Positions 7,824 to 47,191 are shown, counted from the first letter of the stretch. The stretch is 64,000 nucleotides of DNA from Holosporaceae bacterium UBA7879 (GCA_002500565.1 DLRV01000011.1:42019-106018), one strand, 5' to 3'. Numbers and translations: made by a program. Notes: generated by a model from the letters alone, not told the origin.

Positions 7824-9575
7824 ATGATTTCTGATTCCTCAGACAATTCGGCCTCTAACACCCTGTGGTCTCTTTATCCCGCATCCTCCGAAGCTTCTCT
7901 CCTTGCTAATCACCACAACATCTCTCCGCGCCTTGCGCAACTCATGCTTAATCGCGGCGTTAACCCTCAAGAATTTTCAGATTTTTTAAACCCAACCCTG
8001 GCCACCACCACACCAGATCCCTCTCACTTATTGGATATGGACAAAGCTGTTGATAGAATTCTTAAGGCTTTAAAAAATAATGAAAAGATAACCGTTTTCG
8101 GCGACTATGATGTTGACGGCGCTACTTCCAGCGCCAGCCTCATCCTTTTTTTCAGAGCTCTTGGCCATGATCTTGATTTTTATATCCCTCAGCGTGATCA
8201 AGAAGGATACGGGCCAAATATTCCTGCTTTCGATAAACTTAAACAGCAAGGCACACAGGTTGTCATTACCGTTGATTGCGGCGCTACAGCGCATGAACCG
8301 CTTGCCTATGCCAGAAAAATCGGCCTGGATGTCATTGTTCTCGATCATCATCTTGGCGTTGAACAACCACCAGAAACCTGCGCACTCGTCAATCCCAACC
8401 GCCCCGATGAATCAACAAGCCACACCAATCTAGCGGCAGTGGGCGTTACGTTTCTTTTCATCATTGCCCTACGTCAACGTTTGCGACAAAACGGTCACTT
8501 TAGTGACGCGCAGCCAGAGCCTAAACTCACAGACCTTGTCCCCCTCGCCGCCCTTGGCTCTGTCTGTGATGTCATGACATTGCAAGGCTTCAATCGCACC
8601 TTGGTAAAGCAAGGCCTCAAAGTTTTAGACAGCGGCCATATCCTTCCTGGCCTGCAAGCGCTTATTCAAGAATCATCTCTAACCCCACCGTTTAAAGCAT
8701 CACAATTCGGGTTTATCTTGGGTCCGCGTATTAACGCAGCCGGTCGGATAGACGATGCCTCCCTCGGTACTCGCCTTCTATCAAAAGATAGTCTTGATGA
8801 TGAGGCCCAGCAAATTGCTCAGCGCCTTCATCACCTCAATCAAGAACGTCAATCTCTGGAACAGGCCACGCTGCAAGCCGCCAAAAACCAAATTCCGCAA
8901 AATCTAACAGACAACTTCGTGCTTGTGACTGGTCACGATTGGTCAGCCGGCGTTATTGGCTTGGTCGCAGGCCGCTTAAAAGAAGCATATCACAAGCCTG
9001 CTTTTGCCATCAGTTATGATGCATCTGGAACAGGCAAAGGGTCGGCCCGGTCCATTAATGGCTTTGATGTCGGCACGATTATTCAACAAGCTGTAGCAAA
9101 AGGCCATTTACAAAGTGGTGGGGGGCATGCCATGGCCGGCGGCTTTACCCTTAAAAAGGATCAACAGCTAGCCTTTGAAACCTTTCTGAAAAAACAAACC
9201 CAAAACCTTGTCACAACCCGCACATACAATATCGATGCCCCACTAAGCCTTGATGCTGTTAACATTACCACCTATAACGAGCTTGCACAGTTAGAGCCCT
9301 ATGGCAATGGCAATCCAAAGCCTTTGTTCTTGTTCAAAGACTGTTCGATTAAATTTTGCACGGTTATGGGCAAAAATCATATACGCTTAACGTTGGTTAA
9401 TGGATTTGGCGCCCAAGCAACAGCTGTTTTGTTCCGTGCCTTTGAACGGCCCTATGGCCATGAACTCCTCGATTCAATTGGCAAGCAAATTGACCTGATT
9501 GGCTCTTTAAATTTAAACAGGTACAATGGATCTGAAACCATTCAAATTTTGGTTGATGATCTCAAGTTTCTCTAA
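7824..9575 (+). CDS. recJ: single-stranded-DNA-specific exonuclease RecJ
   Basis: 583 aa; DHH motifs (VFGDYDVDGATS, DHH at LDHH), DHHA1 region (GGGHAMAGG) and C-terminal OB-like domain. Confidence 0.85.
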   Translation: MISDSSDNSASNTLWSLYPASSEASLLANHHNISPRLAQLMLNRGVNPQEFSDFLNPTLATTTPDPSHLLDMDKAVDRILKALKNNEKITVFGDYDVDGATSSASLILFFRALGHDLDFYIPQRDQEGYGPNIPAFDKLKQQGTQVVITVDCGATAHEPLAYARKIGLDVIVLDHHLGVEQPPETCALVNPNRPDESTSHTNLAAVGVTFLFIIALRQRLRQNGHFSDAQPEPKLTDLVPLAALGSVCDVMTLQGFNRTLVKQGLKVLDSGHILPGLQALIQESSLTPPFKASQFGFILGPRINAAGRIDDASLGTRLLSKDSLDDEAQQIAQRLHHLNQERQSLEQATLQAAKNQIPQNLTDNFVLVTGHDWSAGVIGLVAGRLKEAYHKPAFAISYDASGTGKGSARSINGFDVGTIIQQAVAKGHLQSGGGHAMAGGFTLKKDQQLAFETFLKKQTQNLVTTRTYNIDAPLSLDAVNITTYNELAQLEPYGNGNPKPLFLFKDCSIKFCTVMGKNHIRLTLVNGFGAQATAVLFRAFERPYGHELLDSIGKQIDLIGSLNLNRYNGSETIQILVDDLKFL

Positions 9576-18507: not shown

Positions 18508-20610
18508 ATGTCTGCACATTTAAAAAAGATATTTTTAATTTTGTTGCTGGTGAATACGTATTCTGTTTTGGCAATGGATCCTGCAGAAGATCAAGAAGAA
18601 CCCTCTTTAAGGCGCACCCCTCTTACCTCAGATCGCGCTTCGGAAGATGTGCCTGCCGCAGCGGCGACTGCTGCCGGTCCTGTTCATGAAGTGGGTCAAG
18701 TAAAAGATCCTCTTATTAATGGATGTCGAAAAAAATTTGAGGCCCTCATAGAAGAAGAACCACCAGAATTGAAAGACGAGCTGCGTAGAGCTTATGAGAA
18801 GGTTGGAGAAATGTTTGATGCTTATAAGCCAAAAAAGCCAGGTTGTCCTGTATTCGATGATCAAGTCACAATTAGTCCTGAACTGAAGATATCAGTTGAG
18901 AACCTTCATACCCTCAACAGCAGTTTTTACTTACACGGTTTCATGTCTAGAATTTTTCCTGTAGATGGTCACCGTATGGCTGTACTTCTTGCACTCCAGA
19001 CGTATGAAGAAAAAACTTTTGAACGGGCAAAAAAAAGAGCCAAACTCGAAAAAGAAACAATAGAAGCAAGGAAACCCAGTGACCAGCCAAATGCCCCCAA
19101 AAAAGAAGGACCATCTCCTGGAGCTCCTCCTTCTTTGTGGAGCCTCCTTAACCCTCATAAGCCAGGTAACGGCGGCAAAGGCTTTTTTCCTCCTGTTCCT
19201 GTATTTCCTCATTCTTTGTCGAGCTTCCTTAACCCTCATAAGCCAGGTAACAGCGTCACAGCCTTTTTTCCTGGTGTTAATGGACCTCCTCTTTCAATGG
19301 GCTGTGGGGGAAAACCCAGTGACCAGCCAAATGCCCCCACAAAACCGGGACAAAGAAGTATTGTTTCCCCAGCAGCCTCCGCTCAAGCATCTGCAGCTGC
19401 ATTGCAAGCCACCTCTCCCGCAGCAGCTGCAGCCCCTGACGAACAATCTTTAAAACAAGGTTTAAGCGTTGCAGCCCTTGCACAAACAGTGATTGCTGCA
19501 ATGTCTTCGGGTTCTAATCCTTGCTGTGCGCCATCAATGATATCGAATGCAGCACTGGTATTAAGCCAAGTTGTAAAAGCAAGCGAGGATGATTTCAGAT
19601 ATCACTTTCTTCAGGAAGTGCAGAAAAGCCTTGAGGCGAAAAGTGGCGCTTCCTTTAAGGATCCAGTTCCGCTTTCTTCTTGCGAAGAGCTAGCAGTGGT
19701 TTGCGGCAAACAAATACCCGAAGAGTTCTTATCACTTTTAACAGGCGATGGAAAACTTCAAGTCACACAAAATGTAAACACTTTAACCGGCGAGCCCCAA
19801 AAAATGTTAGAAAAGTTTGCGGAGAGAGAAGATCTAGCAGTAGCAAGTGCTTCGCTATTAACATTCAAGGAGAAATGGTCATCAGCAGTAAGTGCAGAAA
19901 TTTACAGTGGTTCTTTGCCGTGGAAAGATATAAACGGTAATGAAGTAGAACTTCCACCAGGACACTTTTGGAAATTTTCCCGTAAAGGAAAAGAAGAGGG
20001 CATATTCAGCTTTTTAAGAAACTACACCCTAGCAGAAATTTTACACAAATCTACTGAATCAAAAAGAGATATTGGCCCAGTTATTTTGCATGCACAACAA
20101 AATGAAACGGGTGAATGGATAAATGACTTCTCATCACCAGAGGTTTCTCTATTAGGTCTGTTTTCTCCCAATAATAAAAGCCTCGTGGTTTTTGCCAAAG
20201 CAAATGGTGACGAAAATGCACAGAAAGTAACACCTGAAAATGTGTTGAAGATTATGGCATCATGTCACATTTATGGACCCTCTTTCGATAATGCCAACGG
20301 GATTCTCCCGATATTGGAAAGCAATCAAGAAATTAATTTAAAAGATTTATTTAAATTGTATGATCCTAGAATCTTAGAATGGATTCAAACAATTAAAATG
20401 AAAATAAATCATAAAGGAGCAGAAGTTATTGCGCGACAAGTTTTTGGAGCTGTTTTAAGAGGAGGTGGAGGAAATGTGCCTCGTTTTGACCCCTTAACGA
20501 TATTTAAAATGATACAAGCTGGTGGACTATGTATGGTCTTTGATGCGAAAAATCTAGCTTCCCCCCTTGCTGTTACGAAAGTCACCAACCCCACAAAATA
20601 TAAGCCTTAG
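18508..20610 (+). CDS. secreted hypothetical protein with internal tandem peptide repeats (effector candidate)
   Basis: 700 aa; signal peptide (LILLLVNTYSVLA); repeated SDQPNAPxK and LNPHKPGN...FFP motifs (DNA repeats at ~19070/19310 and 19146/19228). Confidence 0.45.
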   Translation: MSAHLKKIFLILLLVNTYSVLAMDPAEDQEEPSLRRTPLTSDRASEDVPAAAATAAGPVHEVGQVKDPLINGCRKKFEALIEEEPPELKDELRRAYEKVGEMFDAYKPKKPGCPVFDDQVTISPELKISVENLHTLNSSFYLHGFMSRIFPVDGHRMAVLLALQTYEEKTFERAKKRAKLEKETIEARKPSDQPNAPKKEGPSPGAPPSLWSLLNPHKPGNGGKGFFPPVPVFPHSLSSFLNPHKPGNSVTAFFPGVNGPPLSMGCGGKPSDQPNAPTKPGQRSIVSPAASAQASAAALQATSPAAAAAPDEQSLKQGLSVAALAQTVIAAMSSGSNPCCAPSMISNAALVLSQVVKASEDDFRYHFLQEVQKSLEAKSGASFKDPVPLSSCEELAVVCGKQIPEEFLSLLTGDGKLQVTQNVNTLTGEPQKMLEKFAEREDLAVASASLLTFKEKWSSAVSAEIYSGSLPWKDINGNEVELPPGHFWKFSRKGKEEGIFSFLRNYTLAEILHKSTESKRDIGPVILHAQQNETGEWINDFSSPEVSLLGLFSPNNKSLVVFAKANGDENAQKVTPENVLKIMASCHIYGPSFDNANGILPILESNQEINLKDLFKLYDPRILEWIQTIKMKINHKGAEVIARQVFGAVLRGGGGNVPRFDPLTIFKMIQAGGLCMVFDAKNLASPLAVTKVTNPTKYKP

Positions 20611-21045: not shown

Positions 21046-21555
21046 TCAATAAACCGGCAAACAGCCCTCATCGATCAACGTTCCCTCAGCATACAGCTTT
21101 GCCTCAGCATCGCGGCGTCTAACCAAGCCTTGCAGTTTTCGCCCTCTAGCTTTAACCCAACGATAGAATTCATTCACCACTTCATCATGCATGTCACGGT
21201 TCAGTTTTTGCCGCAGCGTTGAGCGTTGAAAAGCCATCCCGCCAACATTAAAAATAAAAGACAGTAAAGCTATTTCTTGCAAAATAGTTAACTCAACCTC
21301 AACCAATTGATCAAGTTGTTTTTTAACCCTAACCAAATCACGCCGCAGTAATTTCTCAGCCTTTTCTTTACTCAGGGGTTCTTCAATTTTTTCCCGTGGC
21401 CTAATCACATGGCCATAGCCAATCGTGATCAAACCAGCTGGGCAAAAGTATCGATACCGCCTGAATCCCTCAAACGGTAAAATAAATTTTGTTGCTTGGG
21501 TCAGCACATCACAATTAACATCGCCCAACACCACAAACTCTTTGTTAACAGTCAT
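21046..21555 (-). CDS. phage-type lysozyme (GH24 endolysin)
   Basis: 169 aa; GH24 catalytic region FEGFRRYRYFCPAGLITIGYGH (E...T.GYGH pattern of lambda R/T4 e-like lysozymes). Confidence 0.75.
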   Translation of the reverse strand: MTVNKEFVVLGDVNCDVLTQATKFILPFEGFRRYRYFCPAGLITIGYGHVIRPREKIEEPLSKEKAEKLLRRDLVRVKKQLDQLVEVELTILQEIALLSFIFNVGGMAFQRSTLRQKLNRDMHDEVVNEFYRWVKARGRKLQGLVRRRDAEAKLYAEGTLIDEGCLPVY

Positions 21556-21566
21556 CAGCGCCCTCT

Positions 21567-22037
21567 TTAAGATTTGCTTTTAGCGCGGCGTTGTTGCCTG
21601 AGAGCCCGCTGACCAAACCAAAAAGACATCACAGCTGCAAACAATGCTTGGTCTTCTTCATGCCAAGCCCGCATCAATGCTGTGCTGATCGCCATGTGAT
21701 CTGTCACAATTAGTAATGTTTTTACCTGTGCCCATTTAACGCTGGCGTACAAAATAAAAAACACATAGGTAATAACAGGCCGAACACTGGCTGCCAATGC
21801 ATCGACCCACTTAATTTTGGTTTGAGCAATTGGCCGGTAAATGCCTTGCGTTTCAACCACATCAATTAGATCCCGCATTTCTTGGGCGCGCATCCGATGA
21901 TTCAACTTCATCACCTCAATTTGCCGATCAAACATTTTCAGTTCGTGGCCTTTGTCTTGTTGGTCTTGAAAGTATTTGACAATATCTGGGAACACACTGC
22001 CCAGAAAACCTATAAACGATCCAAGAATTGTTAACAT
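21567..22037 (-). CDS. putative phage holin / membrane protein of lysis cassette
   Basis: 156 aa; hydrophobic segments at N-terminus and middle, charged C-terminus (RRAKSKS); 11 bp upstream of the lysozyme gene on the same strand. Confidence 0.4.
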   Translation of the reverse strand: MLTILGSFIGFLGSVFPDIVKYFQDQQDKGHELKMFDRQIEVMKLNHRMRAQEMRDLIDVVETQGIYRPIAQTKIKWVDALAASVRPVITYVFFILYASVKWAQVKTLLIVTDHMAISTALMRAWHEEDQALFAAVMSFWFGQRALRQQRRAKSKS

Positions 22038-22059
22038 TTTTTTTCTCCATATTTTGTTG

Positions 22060-22400
22060 TTTAATTAAATCCGTCATTCTGAGAGGATCTTTAATCCGCG
22101 TGAGAATCTCATCCATTCCCCCGTCATTGCGAAGGAGTGAAACGACTGTGGGAATCTCTTCCGCCTTTAACAAGACCCTCACGTCGAAATTTCATTTCTC
22201 CTCAGGGTGACGGGTAAATAGAAAAACGTCATTGCGAGGCGGAGCGCAGCTCCAACGTGGCAATCTCTTCTGCCTTCACTCCACAAGACCCTCACGTCGA
22301 AATTGCATTTCTCCTCAGGGTGACTGGTTTTGGTTTATACGTCATCATGAGGAGCTGCTTTGCAGCGACGTGATGATCTCTCTTAGACGCGAGAATCTCT
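22060..22400. repeat. large cluster of palindromic MITE-like repeat units
   Basis: at least 7 units (GTCATTCTGAG...GAGAATCTC, GTCATTGCGAGGCGGAGCG...TGGCAATCTC, CCTCAGGGTGACGGGT, GTCATCATGAGGAG...CGACGTGATGATCTC). Confidence 0.7.
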
Positions 22401-22424
22401 CTAATCTCCTTCAAATTCACCGCC

Positions 22425-22946
22425 CTACCGTGACTCCATTATCACCAAGCGCCCTTTGGTCTGCATTAAATCCGGCTGCCAGGTTAGCTGCAGATCTTGA
22501 ACCAACCCTTTCAGGCGCGGCTTATAACGAGCGCCACTGAAGGCCAACTCTGTTTCAAACCAGTTTTGAACCGGGTTTTGCATCCCAGGGATTTCTTCAC
22601 CATCCGCTGTGACAATCCGCAAACTGCCTTGCTGCCAAGGTCTGCTGGTCCAAACCTTGTTCCCGTCTCGCTTCAAATCGTCTCCACTTTCATACCAGCT
22701 GTGGCTCAAGGTTAAGTTAATCTCATCTCCTTTCTTCATGCTCAAAACCGGATCAGAGCGATTGGTTTGAAAATCAATCTCAACCTGGTACAAGGGTCGG
22801 CTTTGCACCGGTCCTACATAAACCCAATCGCCATCAATCGTTGGCTTCATTTGCCCCATCCCTTGCAAACGAATCTGTTCTGTATAGAGTGTAAAATTTT
22901 GCCGCCAGGCATTTAAATCAATGTGTTGCATTGGTATCTTCTCCAT
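22425..22946 (-). CDS. phage-associated hypothetical protein
   Basis: 173-aa ORF overlapping the 3' end of the portal gene on the same strand; no recognisable motif. Confidence 0.35.
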   Translation of the reverse strand: MEKIPMQHIDLNAWRQNFTLYTEQIRLQGMGQMKPTIDGDWVYVGPVQSRPLYQVEIDFQTNRSDPVLSMKKGDEINLTLSHSWYESGDDLKRDGNKVWTSRPWQQGSLRIVTADGEEIPGMQNPVQNWFETELAFSGARYKPRLKGLVQDLQLTWQPDLMQTKGRLVIMESR

Positions 22947-24141
22947 TTCTATTTATTGTTTGTTCTGAGTCCGTAACTGCTGATTTCTCCAGTGGTCCAT
23001 ATCCCACCGCTGCGCGTTTTTCATTGGTTGTGAGAAAGTCAGCTTTTTGGAGTCGTTCCCAAATGGATTCACGTCTAAACGTTAGCGCTGAAATTTTTTC
23101 GGCATCAAAGCTAAACCCTTCCGCATTCATCCCTGCCCAGGTTGAAAACTCGGCCATGATGCGTTGCAGTAAAGGAATGATCGTGTCTTCCCATAAGTGG
23201 AAGCGGGCTTCCTTATAATTGGCAAAAGTGGCATCGCCTGGCACGCCCACCAGCATGGGTGGCACGCCAAACGTTTGTGCCACTTCCCGTGCAGCCATTT
23301 GTTTACCGGTCAGAAAATCCATATCACGTGGGCTCATCCCCATTTCACGCCAATCCAAATCCCCTTCCAACACCATCATTTTGCCAGCTTGGCCTGTGCC
23401 ACCATACGCATCGTTCAGCTCTTGCCGTAACTGTTCGCGTTGTTCTTCGGTCAGGGGCAAGCTATGTTCAGCTTGTTTCATCACCAAAGCCCCAGTTGGC
23501 CGTCCGCCGTTATTCAACAGCGAGATATTGTGTTGGCCCATGGCATTGGCTTGATCAATGGCCAATGCCGCAGCTTGAAGTGGGCTCAGCCCATACCAAT
23601 CGTTGTGGGGGTGAAAAAACTTAATGTGCAGAATGTTCGAAGCGCCTGTCTCGGCATTCACAGGAATAATTCTTTTCCGTCCTTCCACTTCATACTGGAA
23701 CGCTTTCGGAATGCCATGGGGCCCGGGCACCACCGCAACCCGATCTGGACGCAAGGGATATAACTCCATTCGCCCTGTATCTGGGCAGGTATAGCGCTCT
23801 ATGTATGTATTCCCTGATAGCAGCAAATAGCTGGTCACTGTTTCTATAAAACTTGACCACGATTGGCTTGGATTGGGCTTGCTCAAAACTTTTTGCCAGT
23901 GCTTCTGTAATTTTGGACACCAGTTATTTGGTATCTGCCACACCACACTGGCAAGGTTATGGGCAATCACATTAATCGCGCGGTAGACAATGCTATTTTT
24001 GCCATAGCCCTCTTGGCATAAGTTCCAATAACTTTGCGACAGGTCACGGCTTGCCATACCGCTACGCACCGACAAAATAGCCGGCCTTGAGTTTGCACGC
24101 GTTTTTGTGCGTTTTGATTTATTCTGAAACCATTGAAACAT
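22918..24141 (-). CDS. phage portal protein, HK97/GTA family
   Basis: 407 aa; portal-family conserved stretches (YWNLCQEGYGKN, LLLSGNTYIERY, VLEGDLDWREMGMSPRDMDFL, FHLWEDTIIPL) as in HK97-type and RcGTA g3 portals. Confidence 0.75.
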   Translation of the reverse strand: MFQWFQNKSKRTKTRANSRPAILSVRSGMASRDLSQSYWNLCQEGYGKNSIVYRAINVIAHNLASVVWQIPNNWCPKLQKHWQKVLSKPNPSQSWSSFIETVTSYLLLSGNTYIERYTCPDTGRMELYPLRPDRVAVVPGPHGIPKAFQYEVEGRKRIIPVNAETGASNILHIKFFHPHNDWYGLSPLQAAALAIDQANAMGQHNISLLNNGGRPTGALVMKQAEHSLPLTEEQREQLRQELNDAYGGTGQAGKMMVLEGDLDWREMGMSPRDMDFLTGKQMAAREVAQTFGVPPMLVGVPGDATFANYKEARFHLWEDTIIPLLQRIMAEFSTWAGMNAEGFSFDAEKISALTFRRESIWERLQKADFLTTNEKRAAVGYGPLEKSAVTDSEQTINRNGEDTNATH

Positions 24142-24491: not shown

Positions 24492-24743
24492 TTATTTATA
24501 GAGGTGCTCACCTGGAGCAAAATTCTCAACAATTTCACCATTATCATTGATTGTTTCCATGGCATATTCTTCCAAAGCTGCCTTGCAGTCAAAAAATCCA
24601 ACTAAGCCCAAAAGAGCATCTATATTATAATAACCTTTAGTACTTTCTTCTTCATTTTCTGATTTATACAATTGCAAAGCTTGATTGTAATGCCACAACA
24701 ATCTCACTGCATAAGGATCACCGTAGCGTGCTTCGTATTGCAA
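24492..24743 (-). CDS. hypothetical protein, probably N-terminally disrupted
   Basis: 83 aa from first Met, but the frame stays open upstream to about 24960 (EAEECPVSARLVELYYEAAFKPNAED...) where a MITE-like repeat cluster begins; helical repeat-like composition. Confidence 0.3.
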   Translation of the reverse strand: MQYEARYGDPYAVRLLWHYNQALQLYKSENEEESTKGYYNIDALLGLVGFFDCKAALEEYAMETINDNGEIVENFAPGEHLYK

Positions 24744-24954
24744 AAACCCTAAAGCTTTCCTGTTTTGTTCACATTCATCTAGTTTAGTAACTTTACCATC
24801 AATAACGACCTCATTAGCATATTCCCATAGTGCTTCCAGAGGGCCCCAAACATTCGACAGAGCCAGTATACTATTTTGCAGATCTTCTGCATTGGGTTTG
24901 AAAGCAGCCTCATAATACAGCTCTACTAAACGAGCTGAAACAGGACATTCTTCT

Positions 24955-25060
24955 GCCTCATGAGGGTGACGGGTTCTGGTTCACCCGTCATTCCGAAGGA
25001 GCACCGCGACTGTGGGAATCTCCTTCCAACTCCACACCAACACTCCCCTTAACTCCATAC
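24955..25060. repeat. palindromic MITE-like repeat units
   Basis: CTCATGAGGGTGACGGGTTCTGGTTCACCCGTCATTCCGAAGGAGCACCGCGACTGTGGGAATCTCC. Confidence 0.65.
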
Positions 25061-25112
25061 CAAAAAAAAGGGAGCCGAAGCCCCCTTTGACTTAAATCGC
25101 TAAAGATAAAAC

Positions 25113-28100
25113 TTATAATGCTGGTGTTTCATCATCAGAACCTAATAATGGTCTAGCATTCGGAAGTGAGGCAGGTCTGTCATCCGGATTGACATGTTTT
25201 GCACGTGGCACAGCTGACAAATCGACAGAAGGCTCTTTCTCAAACATTTTCACCAGTCCATGGCCTTGCTTAAGTTCATTGTCAACAAATCTTTGGAAAT
25301 TCTCTAATGCAGATTTTCTTGTTTTAGATGATCTTGGAGCGTCATCTTTAGATAGCACAGAAAGATTTACATAACCACTTCCTAGATCCAGACCTTCTGG
25401 CACTTGCCCATTATCTTTCAGTTCTATAAACCAATTATTAACTTGATTAATAAATTTATATTTTTTACCCGTATACTGTTGATGTATCGCATTAAGATCA
25501 ACACCTTTTACAGGTTTTACAGGCGGCAATGCATCACGCAGTCCACCAGCTGAGCGGCGGGCTGGGCTCATGACACGGTCACCAGCCGCTGCTGCTGCCG
25601 CAGCACCTTCTGCACCCTCTTCGCCATCATTAACACCAGCACGGAACTGAGCCAATTCAGTTGCAAATTCCTTAGCAGCAGCTTGATGCTTAGATGCCGC
25701 AGCGATTAGGCCTCTCATTAAATCAGCTAGTACGCCTACATCTTCAACACGGTCAACTTTGGCGTCTTTAATAGCTGTACCATACTGGCTTTCAGTAAAA
25801 ACTTTCACTGCAGCCCGCACAGCTGCTAGCATCGCTTCTTGGCCTTCTTCCGCTGCTACTTTTGCCGCCTCTGCCGTTGCAGCACGCTCTTCAGCCTGTT
25901 GCGCCGCTTGTATCTGCTGGCGCAAGTCTGCCGCTTGAGCTTCTTGAGCTTCTTGTGCCGCTCTTTGGGCTTCCTCAAGTTCTGCTACCTTATCTGCTTC
26001 TACTTCCGCTCTAGCTGCCGCAACCTCTGCCGCTTTAGCTTCTTGTGCATCAAGGGCATGTTGATGTAGTCGTTGTAATTCATTTTCAAGCTCAGCAGTT
26101 CGTTGCGTCAATTCAGCTCTCGCCGCTTCTGCTGCAGCGCGGGCTTCATTAGCTTGTTGTGCTGCTTCATTTGCTGCTTCTAGTTCATGTTGTAATCTTG
26201 CCAATTCTTGAGCTTGAGCTTGAGCCGCAGCATCTTGAGCACCTTGGTTAGCTGCAGCCGCTGCTGCTTGCTGTGCTTCCAAAGCTTCAAATCTGCGTTG
26301 AAGTTCATCTCTAGCTGCTTCTGCATCATGTGCACGACGGGTTGCATCTGCTAAGTTCTGCTCAGCCTCTGCTTTGGCTGCAGCTTCTTGTGCTTGGGCC
26401 TCCGCTGCTCTTTGAGCTTGTTCTGCCTGATCTGCTAGACGACCTTGCAATTCATTTCTCGCCGCTTCTGCTGCAGCGCGGGCTTCACGAGCCTGACGCG
26501 CTTCTTCAGTTGCTGCGTCTAGTTCACGTTGTAACCGTGCCAATTCAGCTGCTTGAGCTTGAGCCGCAGCATCTTGAGCACCTTGGTTAGCTGCAGCCGC
26601 TGCTGCTTGCGCATCCCGAAGTTGTTGTAACTCACCAGCAATTCTTTGCCGTTCAGCCTCTGCATCATCTGCTCGACGGGTTGCAGCTTCTAATTCTTGC
26701 TGATGCGCTGCTAAGTTCTGCTCAGCTTCTGCTTTGGCTTCAGTTGCTGCTGCAACATGCGCCTGAGCTGCTTCTTCAGCTTGTCTTACGGCTGCTGCTT
26801 GGGCCTCCGCTGCTCTTTGAGCTTGTTCTGCCTGATCTGCTAGACGACCTTGCAATTCAGCTCTCGCCGCTTCTGCTGCAGCGCGGGCTTCACGAGCCTG
26901 ACGCGCTTCTTCAGTTGCTGCGTCTAGTTGCTGACGTAACTGTACCAAAGCTTCTTGTTGAGCTTGAGCCGCAGCATCTTGAGCACCTTGGTTAGCTGCA
27001 GCCGCTACTGCTTGTTGCGCATCCCGAAGTTGTTGTAACTCACCAGCAATTCTTTGCTGTTCAGCCGCTGCCGCTTGTGCACGATGGTTAGCTTGATCTG
27101 CAGCATCACCTAACTGCTGCAAACGGTTTTGAACTGCTGCATCAACATCTGCTGGCAACGCAGCATTATCTGCAAGTCCAAGAACTCTTCTTGCAAGAGC
27201 TTGACTTGCTGCTCTGGCGGCATCACGTTCTCTTTCTGCAGCTTCCAACTCTTGCTGACGCGCTGCTACTTCTGCTCGCGCTTGGACCAAATTATCTTCT
27301 GCTTGACGAAGGTCTGCCGCTCTTTGCATTGCCGCTGCTTCATCCGCTGGTGCTTGCTGACCTTGTGGTACTAACGCTGCCAAAATACGACCTTTTTCCT
27401 GCTGTGCAGCATTTAAATCATTTTGCGCTTGCTGTAAGTCCTGCTCAGCTTGACGAAGCGCCTGAGCGCGAGCTACAGCCGCAGGTAAATTTGCAGGTAC
27501 TGTACCATTAACATCTTGCAATTCTTGTAAAAGCTGTCGTCTTCCAGCACGCAAGGCAGCCAATTCTATTTGCTCTTGGTTGTTCAATGGCTGATTAGGG
27601 GCATTTAACTGAGCTTGTGCCGCTGCCGCTGCTGCTACCGCCGCTGCCTCACGCTGCTGTGCCGCTTGCAAATCTAAACGCGCTTGTGCTTCTGCCGCTA
27701 CCGCCGCTGCCGCTGCTGCTGCCGCTTGTTGAGCCGCTTGTGCTTGACGTGCCACATCACCGCGTAGTTGATTTGCTGCCGCAACATGTGCGGCAACTGC
27801 CGGGTCTGGTTGAGCAGGTGGATTACCATTTACTGCTGCTGCTAACTGTTGTAAGCGCGCCCGTTCTGCCGCTTCTGCTTGTTGTGCTTGTTGTGCAGCT
27901 TGCCTTGCCGCTTGTAAATCTACACGCGCTTGTGCTGCTGCCGCAACTGCTGGCACTGGATTAGCAGGCACTTGTTGACCATTTAACACGTCTTCCACCT
28001 CTTGCAGATGAGCTTGTGCCGCTGCCACAGCAGCCTGGTTTCCACCCCCTGCTTGTGCTTGTTGCATTTGCTGAACATAATTAAGAGCATTTCCACTACT

Positions 28101-28316
28101 TAAAAACCGGATAAAATCACCTTTTTGGAGCATTAACCCCATATTGCGAGCAACGACAGGGATATACGCTGGTGGAATTTGTTGCGCAGGTACAACTTTT
28201 GCATTGTGATTACGAATGTAAGCCTCCGCTTGCTCAATTGTTGGCTTACCAGCAGACACTGATACGGCTAAAAAAGCTGTTGTAGCCAATACGCTAAGTT
28301 TAAATTTGTTAAACAT
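25113..28316 (-). CDS. secreted giant coiled-coil repeat protein, Ala/Gln/Glu-rich (eukaryote-like effector candidate)
   Basis: 1067 aa; signal peptide (LSVLATTAFLAVSVSA); ~700 aa of heptad-like A/Q/E/R-rich sequence with three near-identical ~115-130-aa tandem units; unique ~250-aa C-terminal domain. Confidence 0.6.
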   Translation of the reverse strand: MFNKFKLSVLATTAFLAVSVSAGKPTIEQAEAYIRNHNAKVVPAQQIPPAYIPVVARNMGLMLQKGDFIRFLSSGNALNYVQQMQQAQAGGGNQAAVAAAQAHLQEVEDVLNGQQVPANPVPAVAAAAQARVDLQAARQAAQQAQQAEAAERARLQQLAAAVNGNPPAQPDPAVAAHVAAANQLRGDVARQAQAAQQAAAAAAAAVAAEAQARLDLQAAQQREAAAVAAAAAAQAQLNAPNQPLNNQEQIELAALRAGRRQLLQELQDVNGTVPANLPAAVARAQALRQAEQDLQQAQNDLNAAQQEKGRILAALVPQGQQAPADEAAAMQRAADLRQAEDNLVQARAEVAARQQELEAAERERDAARAASQALARRVLGLADNAALPADVDAAVQNRLQQLGDAADQANHRAQAAAAEQQRIAGELQQLRDAQQAVAAAANQGAQDAAAQAQQEALVQLRQQLDAATEEARQAREARAAAEAARAELQGRLADQAEQAQRAAEAQAAAVRQAEEAAQAHVAAATEAKAEAEQNLAAHQQELEAATRRADDAEAERQRIAGELQQLRDAQAAAAAANQGAQDAAAQAQAAELARLQRELDAATEEARQAREARAAAEAARNELQGRLADQAEQAQRAAEAQAQEAAAKAEAEQNLADATRRAHDAEAARDELQRRFEALEAQQAAAAAANQGAQDAAAQAQAQELARLQHELEAANEAAQQANEARAAAEAARAELTQRTAELENELQRLHQHALDAQEAKAAEVAAARAEVEADKVAELEEAQRAAQEAQEAQAADLRQQIQAAQQAEERAATAEAAKVAAEEGQEAMLAAVRAAVKVFTESQYGTAIKDAKVDRVEDVGVLADLMRGLIAAASKHQAAAKEFATELAQFRAGVNDGEEGAEGAAAAAAAGDRVMSPARRSAGGLRDALPPVKPVKGVDLNAIHQQYTGKKYKFINQVNNWFIELKDNGQVPEGLDLGSGYVNLSVLSKDDAPRSSKTRKSALENFQRFVDNELKQGHGLVKMFEKEPSVDLSAVPRAKHVNPDDRPASLPNARPLLGSDDETPAL
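26100..27100. repeat. intragenic tandem DNA repeats (~345-405 bp units, 3 copies)
   Basis: e.g. GCAGCATCTTGAGCACCTTGGTTAGCTGCAGCCGCTGCTGCTTG recurs at ~26221, ~26566, ~26971. Confidence 0.7.
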
Positions 28317-28366
28317 ATTTATTTCCCTTAATCTTTTAAAATTTTTATTTTAGCTAAATTTTTAAA

Positions 28367-29197
28367 TTACAGTTTATAACTTAGAGTCATCATCAAACGT
28401 GTTTGTTTTGGCTTAACTTTAATGATTGTGTCTTCACCACGGTCATCCTCAAAATCGTGCTTCACATTTTGAAAGCGACGGTGGCTGAAATCAATAGATC
28501 CTATCCAATCTTCAGAGAATTGGTGAACAAAACCAAAACCCACATCAACACCGAAAACCTTTTCACGGCGCTTTAGTAACTGGTTATCAAGAGCCCCCGG
28601 CACACCACCCCTTGGATGGTTAGCAATACGGCTGTGGGAACTGAACTGAGCAAAGACCGGCCCTGCGCGCAGGTATGCCGCTGTTGCTGGAGCAAAACGC
28701 CAACCAAACTTTTGAATTAAAGCAACGGCAAAATCTTGACGGTATTTCGTTTGCACATCAGTTGCATTAACCACACCATTAACCACATTTACACGTGAAT
28801 TTTTCTTAGACCATGTCTGTGGCCCGGTCATTTCAGCTTCCAAAGACATAAATGTGTTTGGGAACACGCGCATGTAACCAGCAACAATCCCACCAACAGG
28901 CGTTGTTTTTTCTAACTTACGTGTTGCATCCATGTTCACAACACCATTGTTATCTGTTACTTCTAGGTTTTCCTTACCACTGTCGCGGATCACACCCCCT
29001 GTCAAACCCAAATAAAATCCATCTGTCAGACCTTCGGTTGAGGTGTAAACAGTGTTGCTCTTTTGATCAGCGATATTTTTCATGGCACCGCAATTACATT
29101 GAACAGTTTCTGCTACTGCAAGATTAGCACTTAGCGCTAGAACAGAAGTTAAAATTTTAAATTTGGACATGGATATACTCATATTATTTTGCTGCAA
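28367..29197 (-). CDS. outer-membrane beta-barrel protein (OmpA/OmpW-like surface antigen family)
   Basis: 276 aa; signal peptide (probable start MSKFKILTSVLALSANLAVA), alternating hydrophobic beta-strand pattern, C-terminal aromatic-rich strand. Confidence 0.5.
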   Translation of the reverse strand: MQQNNMSISMSKFKILTSVLALSANLAVAETVQCNCGAMKNIADQKSNTVYTSTEGLTDGFYLGLTGGVIRDSGKENLEVTDNNGVVNMDATRKLEKTTPVGGIVAGYMRVFPNTFMSLEAEMTGPQTWSKKNSRVNVVNGVVNATDVQTKYRQDFAVALIQKFGWRFAPATAAYLRAGPVFAQFSSHSRIANHPRGGVPGALDNQLLKRREKVFGVDVGFGFVHQFSEDWIGSIDFSHRRFQNVKHDFEDDRGEDTIIKVKPKQTRLMMTLSYKL

Positions 29198-31005: not shown

Positions 31006-32208
31006 CTATTGACACTGCACTTTATAATTCTTAGAAGCCACACCTTTAAAATAAAACTCCAAGCCCATCATTGCCACATGGCGGCTTAAGGCTGGGTTTC
31101 CCGAAAAGTGGCTATTGGCGCCGTTCCGGGTTAGCCACTCAGCCAATGTTTTAGCCGTCATATCAATGCGTGTCTGGTTAAGCAAGCCCCGCCCTTTTTC
31201 AGCCTGCCGAAGTTGCCACAAGCTATAGTGCAAAACCACCAATAATTTTTTCATGAATAATTGCTGGTGTTCCCGGCACGTTACACGTCCCTCAAAATAA
31301 ACGTCCAGCATTTTTTGATCTTGCGCGGGACTTAAAGCAAAAAAAACACTTACCGCTGCCAAATCATCAAACGCATCGCCCGTGCTGGAATCTCCCCAAT
31401 CAATCAGTTTTATTCCACGCGCGGTTTGTAAAACATGGCTTTGCTGCAGATCGCCATGAATCATCACCATCGGCTCTGGCTGCAAGTTTTCAACCACCAA
31501 CTTCACCGACCGTCTTAACGCTTTTAAATCAACCACAGTTGACTTGATCTTTTGCAGTTCATCAATCCGACGCACAACCCGATCTTCAATTCGGGTAACA
31601 CGTGGATAAAGGCGCTGATCGGCTGGCACTGCATGTACTTTTTTCAAAAGCTTCGTTAACGATTCTAAATCCTGATCAGATAAAGGAATCGATAATGTCT
31701 CCCCCTCTAACCACGGCCAAATCAAAAACCCAGCCTCGGGATCATCAATTGAAATTTCCGGCCCGAATCCAAGCGCTCCTGCTAAGCTTGCTCGATAGAC
31801 GCCGCGCTTATTGGCATAAGCTGTTCGGCCAAACAGCCGCAACCCCCTTTCTTTTGAGCTGCATTTGATGTGATAAACCTGATCAGGTTTTTGACTTCTC
31901 GGTCGATAGACGCACGCACCAATATCCTTCTTACCAATAGCCTCTCTCAATTTTGAAGATACTTTTTTGGGTAATGTCGGCAATAACCTATTCAATGGCT
32001 GGTCAGCCAACACGCCTGGCGCAACCAACGCCTCAGACTGCATACAAAGCCCAACAAACAGAACCAATATCAGCCGATAGATACCCCCCATCAAAGAAGC
32101 AGCAACCGACCTATTCCAAAGTCCGGGCCACTTCTTCAATTTCAGAGCACTCAATAAAGTCACCTTCGCGCAGATCATTATAGTTTTCAAACGCCATCCC
32201 ACATTCAT
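31006..32208 (-). CDS. phosphotransferase-family protein (APH/choline-kinase-like kinase fold) with N-terminal hydrophobic region
   Basis: 400 aa; Brenner motif MIHGDLQQSHVL and IDWGDS (HGDxxxxN / DWE-like) of APH/ChoK family; N-terminal hydrophobic segments. Confidence 0.55.
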   Translation of the reverse strand: MNVGWRLKTIMICAKVTLLSALKLKKWPGLWNRSVAASLMGGIYRLILVLFVGLCMQSEALVAPGVLADQPLNRLLPTLPKKVSSKLREAIGKKDIGACVYRPRSQKPDQVYHIKCSSKERGLRLFGRTAYANKRGVYRASLAGALGFGPEISIDDPEAGFLIWPWLEGETLSIPLSDQDLESLTKLLKKVHAVPADQRLYPRVTRIEDRVVRRIDELQKIKSTVVDLKALRRSVKLVVENLQPEPMVMIHGDLQQSHVLQTARGIKLIDWGDSSTGDAFDDLAAVSVFFALSPAQDQKMLDVYFEGRVTCREHQQLFMKKLLVVLHYSLWQLRQAEKGRGLLNQTRIDMTAKTLAEWLTRNGANSHFSGNPALSRHVAMMGLEFYFKGVASKNYKVQCQ

Positions 32209-36468: not shown

Positions 36469-37809
36469 TTATTCACACCTTCTTTGTAACAAAACCTCCG
36501 AGAGTGTTGAGCCATCTCCAATTTCTGGAAGCTTATCTTCCATCAAAACCCTTAAGAAGTTATCATCACCAACTTTTCTAGAAACTGAAGTCCCCACCAT
36601 TAAACTTTCAAAAAACTTGGCAAAATACTCTTCTAAAAAACCTGGCTCACAATAGGATCTGTAGCATCTTGCAAAAAGGAGATGTGGTTCTTCTCCTTTA
36701 TCTTCCATCAGTCGCTCATAATTTCTTCTTAACAACCCTTGCATATTTTCCCTTGTCCACAATGAGACCTTTTTTGCCATAAACGCTCCATAGCGTTCAT
36801 TGGGCGCAAATATTTCTCCAACTACCTCAGCACACTTTTCAACAAAATCAGCCAAAGAACCTTCTTTTTGTTGCTCACTCGCCTCTCGTAAATCCTGAAC
36901 ACTAACTTGAACAGAATAATTTGGTGCGGTCATATTTTTTTCAAAATCTTCCGATGATAAAAGAACACCCTTATCATTTCGTGGATTACAAACTTCACCC
37001 AGATAGTGAATTTGACCTCCATTTTTAAGCCTAACCGTTACTTGCTCTACGATTACTCCTCTATTACGCTGCAAAAACTCTTTATAAGGCTCATAATCCT
37101 CGACTGAAAATCTCAAAGGACTTAAACATAAATAAGCAATATTCATAAAAGCTCCTGGCGCAGCGATACTTCCAACAATATCCCTAAATTTTTCTATTGT
37201 CTCCTCAGGCATAAAATGTAAAAGGTTACGTACCACAATAAGGTCAAATTCAGCACCCTCTTTTGCCAATTTTTTTAGAACTTTAAGAAAATCTCCCTTA
37301 ACAAATCGCGTTTTCCCAAGCTTTAAAGATTTTAGATTTTTATTGTAATAGTCGATAGCTTCTTGTAAAGCAGGCCGGCTTAAATCATTAAGCACAACCT
37401 CTTCTGCACCAGCCAATAAAAATAAAAAAGAATGAACTCCAAAAGCACCGCCCAATTCTAAAACTTTTGCACCTTCGGCTTTTTCCAGCATTGCATGCAA
37501 AGTTTGAAAGGTATAGTTAAAATGCACGCCGTAAGTAACCTCACCGTCTTGAGCAACATTTTGCGCACGTTTTTTTTTCATAATCTCCAAAATATCACGA
37601 GCTGCTGGCTTTCTGTCTTCTGTGAAAAATTTTTCAACAAGCATATCTTCCGTAAAACCAGCAGACACTAAACTTTCAATACTGGATGAAAGAGTGGGCG
37701 CGGGCACTGCTGCTCCACCTGCACAACCATCGGGTTCTTCTCCCCCCAGGACAGCAAAAACATTAGAAGTCATTAAAGTAATTAAAAGTAAGTATAGGCA
37801 AGGTTTCAT
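36469..37809 (-). CDS. secreted class I SAM-dependent methyltransferase (effector candidate)
   Basis: ORF 36469..37881; probable start MKPCLYLLLITLMTSNVFAV (signal peptide); motif I VLELGGAFGVHSFLFLLAGAEEVVLNDLS and downstream Rossmann motifs. Confidence 0.55.
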   Translation of the reverse strand: MKPCLYLLLITLMTSNVFAVLGGEEPDGCAGGAAVPAPTLSSSIESLVSAGFTEDMLVEKFFTEDRKPAARDILEIMKKKRAQNVAQDGEVTYGVHFNYTFQTLHAMLEKAEGAKVLELGGAFGVHSFLFLLAGAEEVVLNDLSRPALQEAIDYYNKNLKSLKLGKTRFVKGDFLKVLKKLAKEGAEFDLIVVRNLLHFMPEETIEKFRDIVGSIAAPGAFMNIAYLCLSPLRFSVEDYEPYKEFLQRNRGVIVEQVTVRLKNGGQIHYLGEVCNPRNDKGVLLSSEDFEKNMTAPNYSVQVSVQDLREASEQQKEGSLADFVEKCAEVVGEIFAPNERYGAFMAKKVSLWTRENMQGLLRRNYERLMEDKGEEPHLLFARCYRSYCEPGFLEEYFAKFFESLMVGTSVSRKVGDDNFLRVLMEDKLPEIGDGSTLSEVLLQRRCE

Positions 37810-38213
37810 TTTTATTAACTTTTTTATTTTTATATTCAGATAAAAAGTGCAAGTCAAATAAAAAAGCTTTGTCCAAAACACTCAGAACAATAAAACTTCA
37901 AAATAATATTATGTAACAAAATATAAAGCAAACAAAGCATCCACACGGGGAAATCGAGCTAATACACACAATTTAAATCCAAATCACCTAATATGTGACA
38001 AGCCTAATCAGCTTTAATTCAAATTTTTGTGTACCTATAAAGCAACTCTATATTTCTAACCCTCATGACAACAACCCGGTAAAAATACGGGTATGGATCC
38101 CGACAAAATAGCACCCCCTGAACAACTTACAAAAAACGCCTCACACATAAAAAAACTCCCTTCAAACAAATTGTTGAAGGGAGCAAGTGTTTTAAAAAGT
38201 TAATCAATAGCTT

Positions 38214-39698
38214 TTATTGATTTGTTGCAGCTTTTTCCTCAAAAGCTTTATAGAGGCTATGATAAAGGCTTTCTCGACCATTATCTCTACCATGCTTATG
38301 AAGTTCTTTTATCCATCTAGCGTCCTTATTTTCTTCCTGCATAATCAAATCACAAATGCTATTAACAGCGTAGTTGAAATCATCTGTGTGAGGAATTCTC
38401 AAAGACTCTGAATCAGTATCAATGCCAATCTTTTCAGAAGCAAGTTTTAAAACAGCGCTCAACCGAGGTCTCAGAGCTATAGTTATGATTTTCACCTCAC
38501 CTGGCTGTGTTGTCAAAACTCTACCTTCTCCCTCTTGTTGATCCAAACCAACAGCTGCGCTTGCTGCTGCAGCATGCGCCGACTGAAGCTCTCTGCTCTG
38601 AGCAGACCCTCTAGTGAGCCGCTCTAGATGGGCCAAACGAGCTTCTCTTTCTGACAGATGTCCACCACCTAATCGCTGCGACCCTACTTTTGGAGCTGGA
38701 ATAAACCATTTTATTGTTTTATCAGGTTGACGAGGCTCCGCCATTCTTTCCAAAAGAGCACTACCAGCTGCCTGAGCTGCAACCGTAGCCGCTGCTGCAG
38801 CAGGTTGAGCAGCTTGGTCAGCCTCCATTTGTCGCTCAACTTCTGCACGCATTGCTTTAATGTCTTTTAAAGTTTTTGCAAATTGTTCTTGTCTTTCCGG
38901 GGTGATAGCAGAATCATTCTCTCCCGCCGCTGCCAGCACGACACCTTCTCTCGGTGGAAAGGATCTTCTGCGTGAATCCATTGGAGGCGTTCCGGGTAAA
39001 TCATATCCCTCAGCTGCCGAAGCACCAGCCGCCGGAGCAGCCGCACTATCCTGGCCCACAAAAGATTCTTCTATAATGTCTCTAACCCAATCAACACAAG
39101 CTGCTTGATCTGTTTCAAAAGACTTTTTTAAAATTTTATAAGTATCATCAGAACCTGGATATTTATCTATGGAAACTCTCTGAAACTCATTTGCCAAAAA
39201 ATAGTTAGCTAGGAGCTCAATGGAAGATTCATATTTTTCATGACCTGAATTTTGAAGACTCTTTCTACTTATAGCGCCCTCTTCTATCATGCAATTAATG
39301 AATGCTACACCTGCATCTTCCTGTGTCATTATGGGCTTAACAGTACGGCTATTAATTGCATACAGGTCACCTTCTGTCAATGCAGCAGGTGTAGCCGCAG
39401 CTGCAGCTGTCCCTACAACTTCTGCAAGTGATACCTTTAGAGCTTCTTCCAGGCCTTCATCTCCTGCAGCAGCACCATAACTAGATGCAGCTGGTGTAGC
39501 CGCAGCTGCAGCCGGAGCCGCAGCCCCCACAGCACCTGAACGTGATAAATTCACAGTTTCTTCAATTTGTAGGCGTAATGCCAAATCCCAGTCACCTTCT
39601 TCACCAGCTTTATTTCCTACAGGATCTATATCAGCTGAAAATAAATTAAATGCCGTAACGCTCATAAGCATGGCTGTGATTGAGGTTAATTTTCTCAT
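38214..39698 (-). CDS. secreted Ala-rich hypothetical protein (effector candidate)
   Basis: 494 aa; signal peptide (ITAMLMSVTAFNLFSA); several poly-Ala/AAAAT segments; no catalytic motif recognised. Confidence 0.4.
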   Translation of the reverse strand: MRKLTSITAMLMSVTAFNLFSADIDPVGNKAGEEGDWDLALRLQIEETVNLSRSGAVGAAAPAAAAATPAASSYGAAAGDEGLEEALKVSLAEVVGTAAAAATPAALTEGDLYAINSRTVKPIMTQEDAGVAFINCMIEEGAISRKSLQNSGHEKYESSIELLANYFLANEFQRVSIDKYPGSDDTYKILKKSFETDQAACVDWVRDIIEESFVGQDSAAAPAAGASAAEGYDLPGTPPMDSRRRSFPPREGVVLAAAGENDSAITPERQEQFAKTLKDIKAMRAEVERQMEADQAAQPAAAAATVAAQAAGSALLERMAEPRQPDKTIKWFIPAPKVGSQRLGGGHLSEREARLAHLERLTRGSAQSRELQSAHAAAASAAVGLDQQEGEGRVLTTQPGEVKIITIALRPRLSAVLKLASEKIGIDTDSESLRIPHTDDFNYAVNSICDLIMQEENKDARWIKELHKHGRDNGRESLYHSLYKAFEEKAATNQ

Positions 39699-46875: not shown

Positions 46876-47191
46876 ATGTTACCTCCTTCATCACAAAATA
46901 CAGCCAAGGGCTGGTCGCATCCTTTACGGGTTCTGAGGCCAACTCAAAAAACCGATCTTGCCATTTAACCAAATAGTCACTTTCCAATGGGTGCCCTGCG
47001 TCCATCCAAACCTTATAAAGCGCTTTCAGTTGCTTTTGATCAGCGCTATAGACCACACGTTCTTGACTCGGCCTAATGGCCCGAACCGCCGCCCATGAAT
47101 TAAAAACCGCTATCAGCTCTTGTCTACCATGGTCAACATGCACAGCTGTAATGGGCTCAACCAAATCAAAAGGCGTAATATGTATTTTCAT
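46847..47191 (-). CDS. phage/GTA head-tail adaptor (g7-like)
   Basis: 114 aa; size and position typical of head closure/adaptor protein downstream of gp6-like connector. Confidence 0.45.
   Translation of the reverse strand: MKIHITPFDLVEPITAVHVDHGRQELIAVFNSWAAVRAIRPSQERVVYSADQKQLKALYKVWMDAGHPLESDYLVKWQDRFFELASEPVKDATSPWLYFVMKEVTYDVANFIET

Follow-up and report, generated by a model that had tools for sequence, protein, structure and literature searches.

Domain II of TolA is a long Ala/Glu-rich helical spacer in the periplasm, built of tandem repeats, variable in length and under low sequence constraint, and OprI and Lpp are envelope coiled coils with a largely alanine core that serve as length-defining spacers between envelope layers. 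Gram-positive M proteins combine a signal peptide, an Ala/Gln/Glu-rich coiled coil with imperfect heptads, strain-variable tandem repeats and rapid evolution. Proteins of the Vibrio CrvA type are Sec-exported, rich in coiled coils and polymerise inside the periplasm. Iwatani and colleagues reportedly found in 2005 that the 89-kDa protein of Holospora co-localises with fine fibrous structures. Holospora fills its periplasm with proteins specific to its lineage, and in invasion some of these are exposed or released; the 89-kDa invasion-tip protein of Holospora obtusa is exposed at the cell tip (PMC9866348, PMC5911502). During infection, both the 63-kDa (PRP1) and the 89-kDa periplasmic protein are released or become exposed (PMC9866348), and the latter is predicted to be secreted non-classically (PMC5911502). 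Here, we analyse a gene within a 64,000-nucleotide stretch of DNA from Holosporaceae bacterium UBA7879 (GCA_002500565.1 DLRV01000011.1:42019-106018; hereafter the window) that encodes, in this assembly, an Ala-rich helical repeat protein of 1067 amino acids with a signal peptide. We tentatively read it, with a probability of roughly 0.45, as a lineage-specific fibrous envelope protein (a spacer or tether) of a marine Holosporales-like, probably intracellular alphaproteobacterium.

The target open reading frame (ORF) is a genuine gene. Its GC content by codon position is 0.78/0.47/0.26, as expected of a true frame rich in GCN, GAR and CAR codons, and together with the Shine-Dalgarno-like site upstream and the intrinsic terminator downstream (Table 1) this identifies the ORF as a gene. 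Local GC is 0.53 compared to about 0.42 because of the Ala, Glu and Gln codons, the excess lying wholly at codon position 1. GC at third codon positions (GC3) is 0.26, below that of the housekeeping genes in the window (0.42-0.49), and a horizontally acquired origin proposed from the high GC was rejected on these grounds. Leu-rich ORFs on the opposite strand within the gene are mirror artefacts of its GCN/CAG codons. No paralogues are present in the window, and the contig collection holds no record of the exact protein.

The encoded protein consists of 29% Ala, 13% Gln and 8.9% Glu with zero Cys, and after its signal peptide comprises a basic head, Pro-separated helices, an acidic Ala-rich helix region of about 500 residues, a C-block and a basic tail. 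Sequence inspection finds an n-h-c layout at the N-terminus (MFNKFK-LSVLATTAFLAVSV-SA, then GK) with an AxA-type site, and the sole hydropathy peak in a 19-residue Kyte-Doolittle (KD) window reaches 1.5 at residues 4-23. The charged n-region, the h-region, small residues at -3/-1 and the lack of any further membrane-spanning segment are those of a Sec-exported protein with a type I signal peptide, and the N-terminus looks cleavable rather than like a membrane anchor. Such a Sec signal alone brings the protein only as far as the periplasm. Four of the six Pro-rich linkers between the helical modules share a P-A-x..A-[AV] motif, the other two being looser variants. These linkers, all within aa 95-389, do not agree with an uninterrupted helix of roughly 700 residues as originally predicted: only about aa 390-895 (approximately 500 residues) are free of Pro.

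Hydrophobic periodicity is significant in both the modules and the rod, while the hydrophobic seam is sparse. Hydrophobic periodicity peaks at 3.52 in the modules (aa 121-382; none of 500 shuffles reaches the peak) and at 3.56 in the rod (aa 390-841; about 1% of shuffles do). Local 42-residue windows give z = 6.1 at a period of 3.5, where 3.5 and 3.6 cannot be told apart. In the rod (aa 390-824), LIVMFWY residues amount to 10% compared to 37% Ala and any coiled-coil core must consequently be largely alanine. The heptad-like character ascribed to the region is thus borne out as a periodicity of about 3.5 residues over long stretches, but not as a canonical heptad, in which a and d positions are mostly Leu, Ile, Val or Met and make up about a quarter of residues. 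The rod is also enriched in helix-stabilising salt pairs at i/i+3 and i/i+4 (z = 5.4). A single alpha-helix (ER/K) domain, in which E, K and R would make up well over half of the sequence with hardly any hydrophobic seam, was nevertheless rejected given a charged fraction of 0.29 and the significant hydrophobic periodicity. A single-sequence AlphaFold2 (AF2) model of the whole protein has a mean predicted local distance difference test (pLDDT) score of 51 and, at this low confidence, shows aa 121-895 as nearly all-helical, interrupted at the Pro linkers and where U1 meets U2 and U2 meets U3. Overall, signal peptide, composition and periodicity uphold the original prediction of a Sec-signal-bearing, Ala/Gln/Glu-rich helical repeat protein. 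Its 250-aa C-terminal globular region is indeed distinct and non-repetitive (240 aa), whereas globularity is unsupported, with pLDDT mostly below 50 and no family assigned. The more hydrophobic and conserved C-block may be a bundling or docking domain.

Table 1. Coordinates of the target gene, its signals, protein regions and repeat units in the window.
Feature	Coordinates	Strand	Remarks
Target ORF, 1067 aa in this assembly	25113..28316	-	ATG start; mature protein ~110 kDa, pI 4.9
Shine-Dalgarno-like AAGGGA	28324..28329	-	7 nt 5' of ATG, in 50-nt AT-rich gap after upstream gene
Intrinsic terminator	25067..25088	-	9-bp GC-rich stem and T-run, 25 nt 3' of stop codon
Upstream partner gene, 267-aa signal-peptide protein	28367..29170	-	alternating-hydrophobic strands; C-terminal ...TLSYKL; 50 nt from target
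Signal peptide, aa 1-22	28251..28316	-	MFNKFKLSVLATTAFLAVSVSA, then GK; sole hydrophobic segment; conserved in P0002, L009, L010
Basic head, aa 23-94	28035..28250	-	pI 9.7; 36-40% identical to orthologue head; no family match
Pro-punctuated helical modules, aa 95-389	27150..28034	-	helices ~20-66 aa between six Pro-rich linkers; hydrophobic periodicity 3.52
Acidic Pro-free rod, aa 390-824	25845..27149	-	A 37%, Q 16%, E 14%, R 9%; pI 4.6
Repeat U1, aa 419-554 (136 aa)	26655..27062	-	
Repeat U2, aa 555-667 (113 aa)	26316..26654	-	vs U1: 93% nt, 88% aa
Diverged repeat U3, aa 668 to ~762	26031..26315	-	vs U1/U2: 78% nt, 56-60% aa
C-block, aa 825-896	25629..25844	-	more hydrophobic, conserved; surrounding aa 781-920 match P0001 at 61% (phmmer)
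Ala/Gly/Glu hinge, aa 897-912	25581..25628	-	
Basic non-repetitive C-terminal tail, aa 913-1067	25116..25580	-	pI 9.2; few short motifs common to P0001 only
Unstable 147-bp (49-aa) unit zone	27314..27497	-	window: one unit, A/B chimera; other assemblies A and at least 1-2 identical B

The rod contains three direct DNA repeats that are stable across assemblies. A repeat search located them at 26052-27092 with start-to-start spacings of 339 and 405 bp; the long 339/405-bp repeats were not reported by Tandem Repeats Finder. Three tandem units exist as originally predicted, but only U1 and U2, which differ by three indels totalling 23 amino acids, are near-identical, U3 having diverged. Over 3452 bp spanning U1-U3, scaffold L001 aligns to the window without gaps at 99.94% identity, and in L001, L005 and L006 the C-terminal ~780 residues differ by no more than one amino acid. 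The units are therefore not an assembly artefact, being reproduced without indels in independent assemblies, and the strain-variable copy number expected of them is not seen in the available assemblies, in which the variable or unresolved repeat is a separate 147-bp unit. The sole amino-acid polymorphism between assemblies lies at residue 486 in U1 (window 26856 region; L001, L005), where A and N alternate in ...AEAAR[A/N]ELQG.... This change turns U1 into the U2 state, suggesting either gene conversion between units or reads misplaced between repeats.

The 147-bp unit marks a systematic assembly breakpoint. The source organism recurs in marine metagenomes (Tara samples, JGI, Logan and two NCBI records, one of which is the metagenome-assembled genome (MAG) GCA_002696935.1), and eight independent assemblies of marine metagenomes contain the locus. 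Seven contigs run into the gene from its upstream side; all of them, as well as scaffold L001, stop or have a gap inside it, most at aa 298-362, and all three contigs entering from downstream begin at the same place. In the NCBI MAG the gene is split over contigs NZTA01000041.1 and NZTA01000019.1, and one other scaffold has an N gap at the 147-bp locus. The breaks are explained by the tandem unit: every contig reaching far enough contains unit A (...EKGRILAVLVPQGQQA) followed by unit B (PADEAAAQARAAALLQAEQDLQQAQNDLNAAQQEKGRILAALVPQGQQA), and the only one to cross the zone, L003 (= contig L091), carries A+B+B with B copies that are 100% identical. In the window, the 5' part of the single unit corresponds to A and its 3' diagnostic base to B, and a B-specific 48-mer is absent. 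This chimera implies that at least 2 x 147 bp have been lost exactly and in register, either through assembler collapse or in a natural recombinant. The window assembly probably collapsed here and, judging from the units seen elsewhere, the true protein is probably at least 1165 aa long. Annotated lengths of this gene should not be relied on without long reads.

The target gene is confined to a small clade of uncultured marine Holosporales-like bacteria. An exhaustive phmmer search of 1.84 billion protein representatives returned only two partial relatives, P0001 and P0002, both from related uncultured alphaproteobacteria with the same gene neighbourhood as the window. P0002 (179 aa) aligns with the signal peptide and head at 36% identity, and its cluster, which stems from a JGI metagenome and MAGs labelled 'Alphaproteobacteria bacterium', is made up of partial proteins lying at the ends of contigs. 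P0001 (580 aa), which matches the target at aa 781-920, is encoded on a marine metagenome scaffold, where a scaffold gap and then the contig end cut the gene off; a copy of a U-type unit (AAAQAQAAEFARLQGELDAANEAARLAGEARKAAEA) can be recognised in the upstream frame. Beyond the short motifs in P0001, no homologue or family was found for the C-terminal tail. Word-indexed searches for homologues of the whole protein or of its C-terminal 240 aa returned nothing, the candidate list being saturated by low-complexity matches, and a profile search with the head and C-terminus recovered P0002 alone. A tblastn search of 90 loci with head, tail and partner found only L008-L010 and contigs of the same organism. 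Free-living relatives thus provide no conserved orthologues, both matches of the exhaustive search falling within the same small clade.

Orthologous loci differ in the units they have expanded. L009 is fully syntenic with the window (nusA, infB, APH kinase, TLC, a 274-aa protein and the orthologue), but its orthologue has only about 415 aa compared to 1067 aa in the window. In L009 at 8001-9245 the orthologue is cut by two frameshifts into three ORFs (180+72+182 aa); the frameshifts represent either pseudogenisation or an assembly error in the repeat. The L009 orthologue carries a 183-bp duplication (97% identical), and the related strain at L010 (1252-1676) lacks this duplication and is in frame. 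L008, where the P0001 orthologue lies, has 90-bp (30-aa) tandem units of its own at 615-1074 with 99% identity; they adjoin a 100-N scaffold gap (~705-804), so that the assembly breaks inside the rod here too. With 147-bp and 339/405-bp units in the window, 90-bp units in L008 and a 183-bp unit in L009, each lineage has expanded different units. This comparison indicates that rod length changes by tandem duplication and deletion of whole helical units whose sizes are lineage-specific. When the window is compared with L009, identity drops from 92% for TLC to 61% for the small neighbour and 36-40% for the target head. The ratio of nonsynonymous to synonymous substitution rates (dN/dS) is 0.62-0.75 between repeat units and 0.59 for the orthologous C-block. 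By these measures, the target evolves far faster than its neighbour genes.

The target follows a series of same-strand genes and is paired with a small signal-peptide protein. The order is nusA, infB, an APH-family kinase, a TLC ATP/ADP translocase, the 267-aa signal-peptide protein and the target. No terminator was found in the 50-nt gap between the last two, which are probably co-transcribed. Adjacency of TLC, the 267/274-aa protein and the target is kept in a second species, and that of partner and target in L009 and L010. By eye, the partner shows barrel-like features, namely a signal peptide, the segments GFYLGLTGGV, VGGIVAGYMRVF and FGVDVGFGFVHQF and the ...TLSYKL end, which suggest a putative 8-stranded outer-membrane beta-barrel. 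A genome scan with a partner-protein profile gave no match and a metagenome scan one short extra locus. On the 3' side of the target terminator lie an 83-aa ORF, a phage portal gene, a PHROG-family protein and a lysozyme. The ~320 nt between terminator and 83-aa ORF (24744-25066, minus strand) contain no called gene and no Rfam match; the only Rfam match was a tRNA. The 83-aa ORF (24492-24743) has no family match and is kept in all assemblies. Upstream, the APH/choline-kinase-family phosphotransferase gene (31006-32208, minus strand) sits between infB and TLC, an arrangement kept in L009, and its start differs between assemblies (361 vs 400 aa; window, L001-L004, L009).

Gene content supports a host-associated organism as the source of the window. 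Its TLC is 76% identical to that of a MAG labelled uncultured Holosporaceae bacterium, everything else being at most 50% identical, and the window also encodes the type VI secretion system (T6SS) genes vgrG, tssG and tssF and at least seven orphan signal-peptide proteins. The T6SS is the characteristic and nearly universal secretion system of Holosporineae (PMC11909080). The host association assumed in the original prediction is thus supported by TLC, T6SS, the orphan secretome and the Holosporaceae label of the nearest TLC relative. The source is probably a marine Holosporales-like, intracellular alphaproteobacterium, a placement drawn from one marker and gene content.

The target is an orphan and there is no named family under which to file it. 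Sequence searches of Pfam, NCBIfam, PHROGs and the PDB gave no match with the whole protein, with its domains (E ≤ 10) or with profiles A1 and A2; on the whole protein, Pfam assigned no family at E ≤ 0.01. An NCBIfam SMC match is compositional (17.6 bits compared to a cutoff of 567), and a Foldseek search of the PDB with the low-confidence full-length model returned only generic helical hairpins (E > 0.7). The likeness to SNAREs, M proteins or tethers that had been suggested did not hold up, as neither a SNARE domain, an LPXTG motif, a membrane anchor nor a match to Pfam, NCBIfam, PDB or PHROGs is present. A SNARE-like effector was discarded because the 60-70-aa motif described by the Pfam SNARE models was not recognised in the whole protein, and an M protein or LPXTG surface fibril because LPXTG and a C-terminal hydrophobic segment are missing and the host is an alphaproteobacterium. 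A trimeric or classical autotransporter adhesin, which would end in a beta-barrel translocator such as a YadA anchor or autotransporter domain, was likewise set aside, with no Pfam match in the C-terminal 240 aa (E ≤ 10) and a basic, non-amphipathic tail. No Holospora protein was returned by the exhaustive phmmer search, neither P0001 nor P0002 having been traced to Holospora, leaving the 89-kDa and 63-kDa proteins without detectable homology to the target.

These properties are consistent with a fibrous envelope protein. After Sec export, the protein would assemble into an elongated rod through alanine-core coiled-coil or helical-bundle packing, and the rod might act as a spacer or tether in the cell envelope, at the periplasm or outer membrane. 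Anionic envelope layers or the small co-expressed outer-membrane protein could serve as docking sites for the C-block or the basic ends, gain and loss of units would tune rod length, and the protein may be exposed or released on host contact by analogy with the Holospora periplasmic proteins. Several points weigh against this proposal. Location, oligomeric state and partner binding rest on inference from sequence, and the whole-protein model is of low confidence (mean pLDDT 51). An extended 500-residue helix (~75 nm) exceeds the width of the periplasm, so that residence there would require fold-back bundles or a lie parallel to the membranes. No dedicated system for moving a Sec substrate across the outer membrane is visible in the window. 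The barrel assignment of the partner finds no Pfam match even at E ≤ 1, hhalign against the window's own OMP_b-brl protein gives a probability of 5%, and a single-sequence AF2 model has a pLDDT of 30. The two frameshifts in the L009 orthologue raise the possibility that some lineages can dispense with the gene or are losing it, and the high dN/dS is equally compatible with weak constraint.

A doubtful alternative is that the protein is a released host-targeting effector, a eukaryote-like coiled-coil mimic leaving the cell by lysis, vesicles or an unseen outer-membrane route. It might, for example, bind host cytoskeleton, membranes or nucleic acid through its basic ends. The host-associated genome context fits such a role, as do the very rapid evolution and repeat turnover, the many other orphan signal-peptide proteins in the window with equally low GC3, and the precedent of the Holospora 63-kDa and 89-kDa periplasmic proteins, which are released or exposed in infection (PMC9866348). 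However, a Sec signal by itself does not carry a protein across the outer membrane, and the T6SS, the sole secretion machine seen in the window, does not take Sec substrates. Pfam searches of the whole protein and its domains found no eukaryotic-like domain, and a role in the envelope is suggested by the close and conserved pairing with a small protein of envelope type. Sequence alone does not settle between effector, surface fibre and periplasmic protein.

We regard as unlikely the more specific proposal of a length-variable surface fibre, or component of an invasion or attachment organelle, of an abundant uncultured marine protist endosymbiont, with the small outer-membrane protein as its dedicated anchor. 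If it were true, recombination among the identical 147-bp and larger units would yield populations with different fibre lengths, and the gene pair would constitute an undescribed two-gene surface system of the marine Holosporales clade and a functional analogue of Holospora invasion-tip material.

It is improbable that the protein is a TolA-like or Lpp/OprI-like periplasmic connector, running from inner membrane or peptidoglycan to the outer membrane in general envelope maintenance. Its A/E/Q/R-rich rod with sparse large hydrophobics and variable repeats does resemble TolA domain II and alanine-zipper lipoproteins, and an acidic rod between basic ends would suit a connector. The only Pfam LPP and Alanine_zipper matches are sub-threshold, at chance level and to the orthologue P0002, and reflect composition. 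On the other hand, Pfam and NCBIfam searches give no TolA/TonB match and hence no C-terminal domain of that type, and the neighbours are TLC, the small putative outer-membrane protein gene and phage-remnant genes rather than tolQR or pal. The N-terminus looks cleavable (KD maximum 1.5, AxA-type site) and not like an anchor, and an Lpp/OprI-type lipoprotein was rejected since a protein with zero cysteines has no lipobox Cys. Restriction to a single tiny clade is also unlike conserved envelope housekeeping genes.

More improbable still is a weakly constrained or decaying low-complexity ORF that has no specific function and is kept open by GCN-rich repeats. A dN/dS of 0.6-0.75, the frameshifted L009 orthologue and orphan status would all be expected in that case. 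Yet the 3.2-kb frame is intact and essentially identical in independent marine samples, signal peptide, head and C-block are conserved between species, the gene has its own Shine-Dalgarno site and terminator, and L010 is in frame where L009 is frameshifted. A structural protein (tape measure or fibre) of the neighbouring phage or gene transfer agent (GTA) genes is very improbable: although tape-measure proteins are long, helical and repetitive, portal, PHROG-family protein and lysozyme genes follow 1-4 kb downstream on the same strand and terminase genes lie near the L009 orthologue, the target has no PHROG match, bears a Sec signal peptide, is separated by a strong terminator from the portal gene, upstream of which it lies and outside any tail module, the phage-like genes of the window are scattered remnants, and opposite-strand genes intervene between orthologue and terminase in L009.

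Other genes in the window include further candidates for export and scattered phage-like groups. Phage/GTA-like genes occur in two places without a contiguous prophage: 21046-24141 encodes the portal, a PHROG_6637 protein and the lysozyme, and 46510-49481 (minus strand) a prohead protease-capsid fusion, a head-tail connector and a head-completion protein. Terminase genes are found near the orthologous locus in L009. The T6SS block (58720-63649, minus strand) comprises VgrG with Phage_GPD and Gp5 domains, TssG and TssF, and is adjoined by a 249-aa OMP_b-brl/OmpA-like protein and a 248-aa Lys-rich MORN-repeat protein (57177-57926 and 57965-58711, minus strand). Six large ORFs of 472-835 aa (11888-14395, 16626-18284, 18508-20610, 38214-39698, 39961-42138 and 44959-46377) begin with signal-peptide-like N-termini, after which an acidic or Ala/Pro-rich low-complexity segment often comes next, and none of the six has a Pfam family. 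Three of them were tested for GC3, which at 0.27-0.31 is near that of the target (0.26) and unlike that of housekeeping genes (0.42-0.49). The six ORFs may represent a lineage-specific secretome. At 36469-37881 (minus strand) a protein with an S-adenosylmethionine (SAM)-dependent methyltransferase domain carries an apparent Sec signal peptide (MKPCLYLLLITLMTSNVFA; metagenome-call start, 446 aa). An exported methyltransferase would be unusual and could be a host-directed enzyme. A 969-aa protein (53263-56172, plus strand) with Fer4_20 and Pyr_redox_2 domains and long unassigned extensions resembles the small subunit of glutamate synthase or dihydropyrimidine dehydrogenase.

Host-interaction proteins of Holosporales are almost unknown beyond Holospora, and marine members are known from metagenomes only. 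Host-associated bacteria commonly encode orphan secreted helical proteins rich in repeats, and in this respect the target is ordinary. It is nevertheless a concrete candidate for an envelope or host-interface component, sufficiently abundant for assembly from many Tara-type marine samples, with a conserved partner gene and built-in length variation. Most useful among the new facts are that assemblies systematically fail or collapse at the 147-bp unit, that the two-gene arrangement is conserved and that the gene is restricted to a small marine Holosporales-like clade.

As a candidate fibrous envelope protein, the target can be set beside several known systems. Like TolA domain II, its rod is long, Ala/Glu-rich, repeated, length-variable and weakly constrained, but an uncleaved anchor, a TolA/TonB C-terminal domain and a tolQR-pal operon belong to TolA and none of them occurs at the target. 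OprI and Lpp are similar in composition; they are however small (6-8 kDa), highly conserved proteins that carry lipid on an N-terminal Cys, whereas the target is a 110-kDa, Cys-free and fast-evolving protein. With M proteins it shares a signal peptide, a long Ala/Gln/Glu-rich helix, tandem repeats and rapid evolution; it differs in having no LPXTG or other sorting signal and no homology to them and in belonging to a diderm alphaproteobacterium, and surface exposure is not part of this likeness. Predicted Sec export and helical repeats are also shared with proteins of the Vibrio CrvA type, in the absence of homology, the filament and cell-shape role being that of CrvA. Compared to the 89-kDa protein of Holospora, the target has a classical signal peptide and no sequence homology, which makes the relationship one of analogy only, and infectious-form biology belongs to Holospora, the marine organism being known here from its sequence. 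The likeness to the Holospora obtusa 89-kDa and 63-kDa proteins is that all are lineage-specific within Holosporaceae and have no homologues outside it, the Holospora proteins being stored in the periplasm and proposed to function in host interaction.

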